In this document: positions 22,001-25,000 of the stretch, in pieces
Numbering within the stretch: position 1 is the stretch's first letter
Layout of the letters: the number at the start of each line of letters is the position of its first letter
NCBI GenBank assembly: GCA_965233585.1
Contig: CBDDTI010000288.1
Coordinates: 1 to 49,823 of the forward strand
Reading direction: 5' to 3'
Length of the DNA: 49,823 nucleotides
Source: a bacterium
GTDB lineage: Bacteria; SAR324; NAC60-12
Notes under the pieces: model-generated
What the model was told of the DNA's origin: nothing
What the model saw: only the letters and a program-made list of their open reading frames with translations
The model's database searches: none
Translations under genes and position numbers: made by a program

Positions 22001-25000
22001 TATTATCTGATAAAATCATTTTGTTATGATCCGTACAATTTTTCAGCCAACAACTTATACGGGAGTATGGAAACTTTAAAATTACCAGTTTCTGATTTCC
22101 AATGGGTTTCAAAAACTGAATTTAAAAAATGGACTGCTGAAGATATTATCAACATTCCTTCGCAAGACGATACTGGATATGCGTTTGAAGTTGATTTGCA
22201 TTATCCTTCTCATCTTCACCAGGTAAATCCGATCTTTGTTGTGATACGTTATTTATTGTTTTGACAAGTTACATAATATCATTTTCAGGCACACGATCAA
22301 TTTCCGCTGGCTCCGTATACAGACACGGTTTCTTTTAAACATCTATCTCCTTACAATCGCCGTTTACTGAAACATCACTGTCCTCGAGATTATAGGAACA
22401 AAAGATACCGGAGCAAGAAATTGTTGAGCACTTTTTATGACCGAAAAAAGTACGTGGTGCATCTGGAAAACCTGCAGTACTACTTGAAAAAGGGCATGAA
22501 GTTGCTGAAGATAAGAAAAGTCATGAAGTTTCGACAAAAAGCTTTTTTGAAGGAGTTCATCGAAAAGGTTACAAAGCTGCGATCAAATGCTCGCAATGAC
22601 TTTGAACTCCGGCTTTTTAAACTTTTTGCCAACTCTACTTTTGGAAAATTTATTGGTAAGTTTTGAGATAAGATAATTTAATGATGTTGAGATTGTAAAA
22701 GACGCAAAAGCGTAATTTGACGCAGTGCGATTTTTCTGTAAAAAATGAATTTGTTAAATACTCAAACGAATTTGGGGTCATTTTTTATATTTTCTTTAAT
22801 TTTGAGGCACAAGTGCGTGGTGGTACCGGCGACAGTTGCGGCAGTACGTCCTGCCGGCACCAACCACACACTTAGCCTCATCAAAATCGTCATCTTCAGC
22901 AATATCGGCTTCGTTGGCGGGGCTGACGTCGGCGGGGATGACGTCAGTGGGGATGACGTCGGTGGGGATGACGTCGGCGGGGATGACGTCGGCGGGGATG
23001 ACGTCGGCGGGGATGACGTCGCAGGGATGACGTCCGGACGGCCGGCGACAAAGTCGGCGACGGAGGCGGCGGCCGTCCTGATCATCATGATCAAGCCTCT
23101 GGCGAACCGTCTAAGACGGCCACCGCCTCCCATCAGTGGTGGACGCGGCGGTGTCTCGCTCAATGGCGGGTCCGGCAGCAATTTGAACCTCTCCTCCTCC
23201 TCCTCTTCCGTCCATTTCGCCCTCAACACCTCGTATTTCCCCCTCCTCATCATCCTTCCCAACTTTCCCTTGTCCATTTTCCTTTTCCTTCTCCTTCTCC
23301 TCTTCCTTCTCTAAAATTTGTTTTGAATTTTCCCGCATGGTTTTGTCAATTTTAGAAAATGAATCTCCAAACCTTCACATATTAATTAGCAAATTATCTC
23401 ATAAATATTCATAATATTAAATCAATATTAAATTAAAAATTCGCAAAATGAATTAATCAAGTACGCAAACTTTTGAAAAATCAATTTTTATAAAATGATG
23501 TGTTTATTTTGTAATCAAAAAGAAAAAGAAAAATGATCAAATTTAAATTTTAATTTTTTTTTGTAACTTTTCGAGCTGTAGACGGAGACCACACTGATGG
23601 AAATGCCGTTACTTGACGCACTTCTGGTGTTGGTGAAGGTTCCACGTGACGATAGGGTGGTGGTTTAGATTTTGATGTTGATTGTGAAGACAAATCAAAT
23701 GACACGCGATGAGAGGTCTGCTTTCGTGACTCCGACTCCGGCCTTTGTGGGACGGATTTGTACGGGGTTCGTGATGGCCAAGCAGGTGCTACGGGTCGCT
23801 CGGAAGATGCCCATGATCCCCCACCCAAGGCCGCAGAAGATGACCATGCTCCCCCAGTTTTAGTAGATGACCATGCCCCCTCAGTTTTAGTAGATGACCA
23901 TGCTCCTCCGCCCACAGCCCCAGAAGATGACCATGCTCCTCCAGTTTTAGTAGATGACCATGCTCCCCCGCCCCCAGCTCCGGTAGTAGATGCGCTCTTC
24001 CACGACTCCGGCTCTGATTTTTGTGGGACGGACTTGTACGGGGTCCGTGATGGCCAAGCAGGTGCCACGGGACGTTCGGAAGATGCCCATGATCCCCCAC
24101 CCAAGGCCGCAGAAGATGACCATGCTCCCGCAGTTTTAGTTGATGACCATGCCCCCTCAGTTTTAGTAGATGACCATGCTCCTCCGCCCACAGCCCCAGA
24201 AGATGACCATGCTCCTCCAGTTTTAGTAGATGACCATGCTCCCCCACTCCCGGCTCCGACAGTAGATGCGCTCTTCCACGACTCCGACCCTGATTTTTGT
24301 GGGACGGACTTGTACGGGGTCCGTGATGGCCAAGCAGGTGCCACGGGACGTTCGGAAGATGTCCATGATCCCCCACCCAAGGCCGCAGAAGATGACCATG
24401 TTCCTCCAGTTTTAGTAGATGACCATGCTCCTCCGCCCCCGGCCCCGGCAGTAGATGCGCTCTTCCACGACTCCGACCCTGATTTTTGTGGGACGGACTT
24501 GTACGGGGTCCGTGATGGCCAAGCAGGTGCCACGGGACGCTCGGAAGATGCCCATGATCCCCCACCCGCAGCCCCAGAAGATGACCATGCTCCCTCAGTT
24601 TTAGTAGATGACCATGCTCCCCCAGCCGCAGCCCCGGTAGAGCTACTGCCAGAAGTCGGACTTGAAGTTGCCTCCTCCTGACCTGATTTTATTACTTTTA
24701 ACCAAAAAGCTTTGCTCTTTTCCTGATCTTTTTTATCCATTTTGACTTAGTGTTTATTTTGTGGGAATTTTTGATGTCCGTTTATGTCGGGCTTTAAAAA
24801 AGGAATGATCTCAAATTGAAGTAAATTATAGCACATTGCTAATTACAGAGGAAAATGAAATGTGATATGGGACGGCTAGTTAGCTGAGGTGATTGCGCAC
24901 ATAATCAATTTTCTTTATAAAATAAATCTTATTCTGCATTTCAGAAAATGTTCGAAATTACTCTGAAGTGATCCTTTGTGGTGATGAACAGAGCTTAAGG

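Follow-up and report, generated by a model that had tools for sequence, protein, structure and literature searches.

Antisense reading frames in a long polB intron as probable element-specific genes of a Maverick/Polinton-like clade

The window analysed here is one entire 49.8-kb contig (C288, CBDDTI010000288.1) of a 12-Mb, 747-contig assembly, and it contains, as the second of its element copies (copy 2), a full Maverick/Polinton-like element with a protein-primed polB gene. The last intron of this polB holds two open reading frames (ORFs) on the opposite strand, ORF-a and ORF-b, and we consider it likely that these are element-specific antisense genes of a Maverick/Polinton-like clade that are inherited together with the element. 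A first-pass annotation, made from the letters of the window alone, had drawn attention to this intron and had described it as a variable cargo bay; its account of the intron is largely borne out, and its view of the cargo is not.

The long intron of polB and its distribution

Starting from the ATG at 19799, our model of polB in copy 2 comprises six exons separated by five GT..AG introns of 59, 61, 60, 66 and 2289 nt. The spliced frame of 1134 aa is open, ends in a single terminal stop and carries the motifs YDLHLIV, YIDANNLYG, NSTFGKFIENVRN and FSDTDS, which were read directly; Pfam polB models gave no match when single exons were scanned. In exon 1 (19799-21057), residues 352-407 match an Endonuclease VII/HNH-like domain (PF02945, E 8.8e-6, above cut-off). 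The long intron, counted as intron 6 in the first-pass annotation, is intron 5 in this gene model. It is 35-39 times as long as the other four introns and cuts a Glu codon directly after the motif B sequence NSTFGKFI. Its region has 47-50% GC, compared with about 33% around it, and it is the sole strongly GC-rich stretch within copy 2. The description of a 2289-nt intron with two GC-rich minus-strand ORFs of 396 and 171 aa proved accurate: both frames, together with both of their candidate polyadenylation hexamers, lie inside the intron (Table 1).

We surveyed the intron site in the same 12-Mb assembly by tblastn with the two flanking exons and recovered 48 polB copies for which a single contig carries both flanks. 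Nine of these (34-50% identical) have no intron at the site and read ...YGKTMENVRK... uninterrupted, 14 (62-72% identical) carry a short GT..AG intron of 58-77 nt in the identical codon and phase, and 25 carry a long intron of 941-2322 nt. Within one assembly, this site shows a graded range, from uninterrupted coding sequence through a short intron to an intron that bears genes. The long introns belong to four lineages. Lineage A comprises 12 copies at least 97% identical to copy 2 (intron of 1583 nt in one of them, 2254-2322 nt in the others); lineage B comprises 11 copies about 88% identical to copy 2, with introns of 1077-1351 nt and 53-55% GC; lineage C is copy 3 of the window (941 nt); and lineage D is a single copy on contig C224 (2018 nt). 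Six more partial copies were found at contig ends, beside unpaired polB exons. A search of metagenome contigs returned a sole match, a metagenomic (JGI) polB with 40% identity, in which the intron at this site is absent. A viral contig collection queried with the exon 3' of the long intron and ORF-a gave no match, and neither did a genome contig collection queried with this exon and ORF-b. This exon (24945-25738 in copy 2) is referred to as exon 7, the label that it carries in our exon statistics.

On the polB tree all copies with an intron group together (support 99/98). Within this clade those with a short intron are monophyletic (100/100), and the long-intron copies constitute two groups, B and C+D+A, which make up a three-way polytomy with the short-intron clade. 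The three intron states need only two changes on this tree. Intron content is uniform within a lineage (12 A and 11 B copies), and both presence and sequence of the content follow the polB phylogeny: introns of lineage B hold one minus-strand ORF of 306-380 aa that takes up nearly the whole intron, and those of A and D hold ORF-b upstream and ORF-a downstream. The occurrence of ORF-b in A and D and its absence from B is the sole clear presence/absence difference between live lineages.

Exon 7 is open in 23 of the 25 long-intron copies, including all 11 of lineage B, and a comparison of this exon between A and B gave a synonymous divergence (dS) of 0.73 and a ratio of nonsynonymous to synonymous divergence (dN/dS) of 0.07. 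polB is under strong purifying selection across the gene-bearing lineages. Together with the short intron of the sister lineages and its absence from more distant ones, these values agree with the first-pass proposal that the intron harbours genes without breaking the polymerase.

Conservation of ORF-a and ORF-b

ORF-a in A and D ends VV..T.C..YHH.LV, as does the single ORF of lineage B, with nine invariant columns in nine sequences, and BLASTP between the A and B forms gave E 3e-5 over the last 29 residues. They have a common layout that consists of a basic N-terminus, an acidic stretch, an amphipathic helix, variable Pro/acidic tandem repeats (DVIPA in A, PTESPIEMLIEA in B), a further acidic stretch and the Cys/His end. 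Over about 100 nt, the leader or promoter region upstream of ORF-a shows 82-83% identity between the introns of A and B, despite the polB dS of 0.73. Judged by their sequences, the ORF-a forms of A, D and B are homologous. In the leader region an upstream ATG with the peptide M[RW][EQ][NF]SKQ (23330-23338, minus strand) is conserved in A, B and D introns; its reading frame is that of ORF-a in some B copies and a different one in A and D, and it could be an upstream ORF or a leader element.

The 171-aa frame of copy 2, which had been presented as a gene, is present as an ORF but represents a frameshifted ORF-a and not the native form. Intact relatives of 149-169 aa end ...AKCVVGAGRTYCRNCRRYHHALVPQN. 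In copy 2, a one-base length difference in the 15-nt repeat array leads to PPTSS in place of DVIPA repeats, and the resulting 171-aa ORF therefore lacks the conserved C-terminal motif, which follows out of frame. Contigs from public runs have one extra base near 23020 relative to copy 2. Ten of the 12 lineage A copies keep the conserved end, and in 10 of 12 no stop interrupts the frame between start and motif. An ATTAAA hexamer lies 112-117 nt past the ORF-a stop in all 12 lineage A copies and in copy 3. In lineage B the ORF-a stop lies about 40 nt from the exon, and the 3' end of the gene probably overlaps polB exon 5. A HMMER search of 1.84 billion representatives with ORF-a gave 406 matches at E <= 0.001; the conserved end is covered by the first four only, which are the true public relatives, and the others that were inspected match PTE/PIE repeats only.

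ORF-b consists largely of 276/189-nt tandem repeats, and its 396 aa include 27 Trp residues (6.8%) at a median spacing of 11, with Gly, Ser, Ala and Thr making up 57-58% and hydrophobic residues 7%. The frame is open from MDKK to KVTKKN in eight of the 12 lineage A copies, seven of which are exactly 396 aa long; the remaining A copies comprise one 421-aa frame and three broken ones, and the form of lineage D is frameshifted. AATAAA is found 41-42 nt past the stop in 11 of 12 A copies, these being the 11 that could be scored by pattern. Seven public relatives were found, one from the same assembly and the rest on ENA metagenome contigs, many of them frameshifted; one relative, P0007, is a divergent but intact protein of 220 aa with 42% identity to P0001. 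Trp columns vary in 0 of 27 cases, compared with 39 of 369 other columns, a trend only (Fisher p 0.093). When ORF-a, ORF-b and their end pieces were used as tblastn queries against the assembly, every match fell within one of the long polB introns or, at the end of a contig, next to a polB exon whose partner is missing.

Coding pattern and alternative explanations

Values of dN/dS for the nested frames were obtained from Nei-Gojobori counts pooled over all pairs of copies. In lineage B the last 92 codons of ORF-a, which are non-repetitive, gave 0.17 in frame (dS 0.243) as opposed to 1.5-3.9 in four other frames, two of them shifted and two on the opposite strand; the first 118 codons gave 0.55, and ORF-a of lineage A 0.48. 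For ORF-b of lineage A the ratio was 0.39 versus 1.05-1.41 in shifted frames, and 0.34 in the last 76 codons. Both ORFs show a coding-type substitution pattern. Since dN/dS does not pick the strand, we decided the strand by ORF integrity, by the ORF-a motif and by the conserved starts, stops and hexamers. Across ORF-b only the minus strand is open, plus-strand ORFs there being at most 62 aa long, and the invariant ORF-a motif falls outside the overlapping plus-strand ORFs.

The nested frames differ from their surroundings in composition and in rate. GC at third codon positions is 0.63-0.73 in ORF-a and 0.40 in ORF-b (0.76 at second positions), compared with 0.20-0.35 in nine core genes. Within lineage B the end of ORF-a has a dS of 0.243 and a dN of 0.040, polB exon 7 a dS of 0.091 and a dN of 0.006; 22% of sites vary in the former and 5% in the latter, and CpG sites account for 24 of 47 transitions in the former versus 8 of 34 in the latter. 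ORF-a and ORF-b evolve several times faster than polB, and with a polB dS of 0.73 between A and B, a fast ORF-a would be barely alignable between these lineages without any replacement.

On the reading that we prefer, a small ordinary spliceosomal intron in motif B of polB would have become the home of opposite-strand element genes in one clade, with ORF-a as the putative core gene of every long-intron lineage and ORF-b as a second gene in A and D. Less probably, this intron arose when the gene cassette itself inserted, in which case a deletion would have left the sister clade with its short intron. polB pre-mRNA would be transcribed through the cassette and the whole 1-2.3 kb spliced out, as suggested by the GT..AG ends, the conserved phase and the constraint on exon 7. 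Transcription of the nested genes would be convergent with that of polB, starting at promoters of their own within the intron and stopping at the AATAAA or ATTAAA of each gene. Their products may be largely disordered accessory proteins that act on the host and not in replication: ORF-a would combine a basic N-terminus, an amphipathic helix and acidic Pro-rich repeats with a zinc-knuckle-like Cys/His end, and ORF-b would present regularly spaced Trp residues in a Gly/Ser/Ala background. Fast evolution, foreign codon usage and restriction to the element make up the profile expected of host-interaction factors. Copies differ mainly by gain and loss of repeat units, by frameshifts, and by deletions in dead copies, and not by an exchange of unrelated cargo.

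Several points weigh against this reading. On the best tree the long-intron group needs two changes, and a single change suffices in 34% of bootstrap trees; because of the three-way split, the tree favours neither enlargement of a short intron nor shrinkage of a long one. In the opposite-strand frame with common wobble positions, dN/dS is nearly as low as in the proposed frame (0.23 for ORF-a of B, 0.39 for ORF-b). The ratios combine pairs of repeated copies that are not independent of each other, and about 30 similar copies assembled from short metagenome reads may include chimeras between copies. Sense-strand ORFs of up to 322 aa overlap ORF-a in lineage B, where ORF-a is open over its full length in just six of 11 copies (11 of 11 for polB exon 7), one of the six having an internal out-of-frame stretch. 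The homology of ORF-a between A and B depends on a short motif and on position. Pfam, PHROGs and PDB gave no match for either protein (in PHROGs, sub-threshold repeat matches only), and an AlphaFold2 model of an ORF-a relative built from a nine-row alignment is poor, with a mean pLDDT of 45.6 and a pTM of 0.23, mostly disordered and with four long helices. No RNA run with the sequence of 22000-25800 was found, an outcome that speaks neither for nor against expression. Contigs from four public runs are short and DNA-like, and none joins 22655 to 24945. The ESM Atlas held nothing usable for the intron ORFs.

The first-pass annotation had proposed that the intron is a free bay that time and again takes up, exchanges and loses unrelated accessory genes, which we now regard as unlikely. 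Its main example was copy 3, whose 941-nt intron does keep its splice ends and does hold a 96-aa ORF and a stub of the smaller gene (the last ~14 codons and the 3' flank), between exons that are, as had been stated, highly similar to those of copy 2 (89-92% identity). However, copy 3 does not contain an intact polB. Its split codon reads TAA (T before and AA after the intron), exon 7 breaks at 45696, where lineage-B-like contig sequence starts, and the copy is a dead, rearranged polB fragment. The two introns have only the first ~185 and the last ~28 nt in common. Read along the minus strand, the copy 3 intron consists of an upstream region collinear with that of ORF-b in A and D, the 96-aa ORF, a duplicated proximal 3' flank of ORF-a, an AT-rich stretch, and the ORF-a stub with its 3' flank. 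The only database matches of the 96-aa ORF are itself and a partial duplicate at 46327-46625. We also tried this ORF as a homologue of ORF-a or ORF-b and rejected the candidate, as BLASTP was not significant (ORF-b, E 0.48 and 1.9; ORF-a, E 1.5-2) and only the flanks are homologous. Going by these flanks, the 96-aa ORF looks like a rearranged remnant of the same cassette and not like new cargo.

A bay with changing cargo would account for the ORF-b difference between lineages, for a 96-aa ORF without significant similarity to either gene and for sister lineages whose short intron is empty. It fits poorly with a content that is uniform within the 12 A and 11 B copies and tracks the polB tree, and with an ORF-a that is homologous across A, B, D and the copy 3 stub; the sole odd cargo sits in a dead, truncated copy, has no relatives and is flanked by pieces of the same cassette, and one clear gain or loss, that of ORF-b, suffices. 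With this single presence/absence difference among live lineages, swapped cargo is unsupported. The part of the proposal that speaks of gain or loss holds for ORF-b and for no further clear difference in live lineages. Cataloguing the intron across the 48 copies, as the first-pass annotation had recommended, showed the same content within each of lineages A and B, and comparison of the cargo with the polB phylogeny, also recommended there, showed ORF content that follows the polB tree.

We judge it quite improbable that the GC-rich inserts are non-coding minisatellite expansions and the ORFs by-products of stop-poor repeats. Much of both ORFs is indeed tandem repeat, several frames are open on both strands in the GC-rich parts, and the lack of database families, the disordered model and the many frameshifted copies would all be expected of such sequences. 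Against this, the synonymous excess is frame-specific, also in the last 92 codons of ORF-a (0.17) and the last 76 of ORF-b (0.34); the terminal ORF-a motif does not vary between lineages with a synonymous divergence of 0.73; and start, stop and downstream AATAAA or ATTAAA are conserved, with ORF-b at exactly 396 aa in seven copies. It is very improbable that the insert is an unrelated transposon, or an introner-like element, that entered the intron and has since been a mere passenger, a possibility which the first-pass annotation had named as one that would speak against its own proposal. In its favour, the insert departs from the element in GC content, the same window contains GC-rich pieces of retrotransposons, and introners are reported in dinoflagellate Polinton-like elements (PMC11957031). 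Against it, we found no terminal inverted repeats bounding the insert, no transposase, reverse transcriptase or integrase domain in the intron ORFs and no copy outside polB introns in the 12-Mb assembly, and the insert persists across a dS of 0.73.

Known systems and the element in its window

The comparisons with published systems draw on the portions of the cited papers that were available as text. Nematode Mavericks carry a GC-rich cargo region with wasp proteases and krma kinases (Widen et al., 10.1101/2022.07.12.499685). As in that region, the accessory genes described here lie in a stretch that is richer in GC and less conserved at the nucleotide level than the core genes; unlike the nematode cargo, they are antisense within a polB intron, are intronless orphans and co-diverge with the element. 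They do not form a cargo zone of the nematode kind, as the only GC-rich stretch is the polB intron, the ORFs are uninterrupted, and searches of the assembly and of public proteins revealed no host paralogue. Nested intronic genes on the opposite strand are known from cellular genomes, for instance 2mit in Drosophila tim2 (PMC3786989) and pairs in C. elegans (PMC12274878). In the present case, unlike in such pairs, it is the replicase of a multi-copy mobile element that hosts the nested genes, which are the element's own and travel with it. Among the matches listed by full-text literature searches, no paper described genes inside an intron of a Polinton or Maverick gene. The parts, Maverick accessory genes and nested intronic genes, are thus known, and we found their combination with constrained antisense genes in a replicase intron undescribed in the literature covered by these searches. 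Nested intronic genes offer a compact virus-like genome a way to gain genes without longer intergenic space or a broken essential gene.

The polymerase itself resembles that of pPolB2 Polintons, in which an HNH endonuclease domain is a hallmark of the oomycete and nematode forms (Jeong et al. 2023, PMC10748475): it is a protein-primed polB with an HNH/Endonuclease VII-like insertion and is linked to an rve integrase. The available text of that paper differs from our case in that it has no passage on polB introns or nested genes; the word 'intron' occurs there twice, neither time about polB.

WG/GW proteins bind Argonaute through Ago-hook platforms, and a viral mimic, SPMMV P1, has been described (Giner et al. 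2010, PMC2904775); some plant viruses mimic WG/GW platforms. ORF-b resembles an Ago-hook in its many Trp residues in a Gly/Ser/Ala-rich, hydrophobic-poor context at a spacing of about 11 residues, so that its composition would match an Argonaute-binding platform. It differs in showing no homology and no match to the Pfam Ago_hook model, the likeness being compositional only. In lineage A none of the 27 Trp residues is in a strict GW/WG context and 18 have small or polar flanking residues; strict WG accounts for 13 of 16 in the lineage D form and for 8 of 11 in P0007. A search of longer proteins with P0007 for named GW proteins gave the ORF-b family only. By analogy, the cassette might be an anti-silencing module in which ORF-b acts as a Trp-repeat Ago-hook mimic that titrates host Argonaute/PIWI, a speculation that we hold to be rather doubtful. 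On the same speculation, and with the same doubt, the antisense position of ORF-b in polB would be the place where convergent transcription would otherwise make the element a source of double-stranded RNA.

The window has a background of about 33% GC that consists of AT-rich virus-like elements with spliceosomal GT..AG introns, interrupted by GC-rich pieces of long terminal repeat (LTR) retrotransposons with rve, reverse transcriptase and protease domains. The inverted terminal repeats of copy 2 (13057-13673 versus 37023-36459 inverted) match at 89%, and the same terminal sequence of the element recurs at 4943-5320 and 46626-47015.

Table 1. Positions of the polB intron features, element copies and further genes in the window
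Feature	Position	Strand	Remarks
polB, protein-primed, copy 2	19799..25738	+	exons 19799-21057, 21117-21673, 21735-21986, 22047-22222, 22289-22655, 24945-25738
Long intron (polB intron 5), copy 2	22656..24944	+	2289 nt, GTAAGT...TTTCAG, phase 1, splits ...NSTFGKFI/ENVRNY...
ORF-a as read in copy 2	22762..23277	-	171 aa; native N-terminal half, frame shifted within 15-nt repeat array 22912-23034
ORF-a Cys/His end and stop, out of frame	22796..22880	-	motif and stop 140 nt from intron 5' end; out of frame with start 23277
Candidate poly(A) signal of ORF-a, ATTAAA	22677..22682	-	113 nt past native ORF-a stop; putative role
Leader/promoter region upstream of ORF-a	23275..23372	-	
ORF-b, intact in copy 2	23550..24740	-	396 aa; conserved N-terminus MDKKDQEK..., C-terminus ...PEVRQVTAFPSVWSPSTARKVTKKN
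Candidate poly(A) signal of ORF-b, AATAAA	23503..23508	-	41 nt past ORF-b stop; putative role
Long intron, copy 3	44529..45469	+	941 nt, GT..AG
96-aa Pro-rich ORF, copy 3, orphan	44914..45204	-	between ORF-b-type upstream region 45205-45469 and duplicated ORF-a 3' flank ~44850-44913
ORF-a stub, copy 3	44674..44720	-	last ~14 codons (...CRWYHQAHVPQI) and stop, then 3' flank to splice site
FtsK/A32-like ATPase	25802-26497		ATPase_2, Pox_A32, FtsK_SpoIIIE, E 1.6e-4 to 6e-3, all below curated cut-offs
rve integrase	32093-33175		PF00665, E 2.5e-9, above cut-off; chromodomain below its cut-off
Copy 1, truncated element	4943-13054		self-comparison
Copy 2, full element, terminal repeat to terminal repeat	13055-37023		self-comparison
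Copy 3, fragment	41772-45696		self-comparison
Copy 4, inverted end only	46626-49823		self-comparison
GC-rich retrotransposon pieces	1-4900 and 37018-41000		

At the junctions 13054/13055, 37023/37024, 45696/45697 and 46625/46626 the copies abut each other or retrotransposon pieces and have no common flanks. Copy 1 breaks inside polB at the start of the terminal repeat of copy 2, and copy 3 breaks inside exon 7. Such junctions stem either from nested insertion and rearrangement or from repeats that were joined during assembly.

In addition to polB, copy 2 encodes a weakly matching A32/FtsK-like ATPase, an rve integrase with a chromodomain and, as an unusual feature, TBP-domain and TFIIB-like proteins. 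Given the polB motifs, the rve integrase and the terminal inverted repeats in its sequence, we class it as Maverick/Polinton-like. Among the remaining ORFs, Pfam and PHROGs sequence profiles gave no match for capsid genes (double jelly-roll major capsid, penton) or for an adenain-like protease. The contig is eukaryotic and not bacterial, a passenger in a bin assigned to a SAR324 bacterium, and a scan for bacterial promoters and terminators has no bearing on such an element. On C288 and at least 40 other contigs, the assembly contains LTR retrotransposons and several families of Maverick-like elements that have spliceosomal introns and count at least 48 copies with polB, from which it follows that a large share of the small contigs of the bin is eukaryotic repeat DNA.

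A TBP-domain protein (PF00352, E 4.5e-18) and a TFIIB-like protein with a TFIIB zinc ribbon and a TFIIB-repeat/HTH region lie side by side at 30308-30850 and 30957-31676. In a full-text literature search for Polintons with TBP or TFIIB, no paper among the best ten matches held the word 'polinton' in the text searched. Between 26546 and 34933 several element genes are nearly spacerless, the next ATG following a few bases past the preceding stop and mostly after an A-rich stretch, and this tight packing suggests operon-like or closely packed transcription units.

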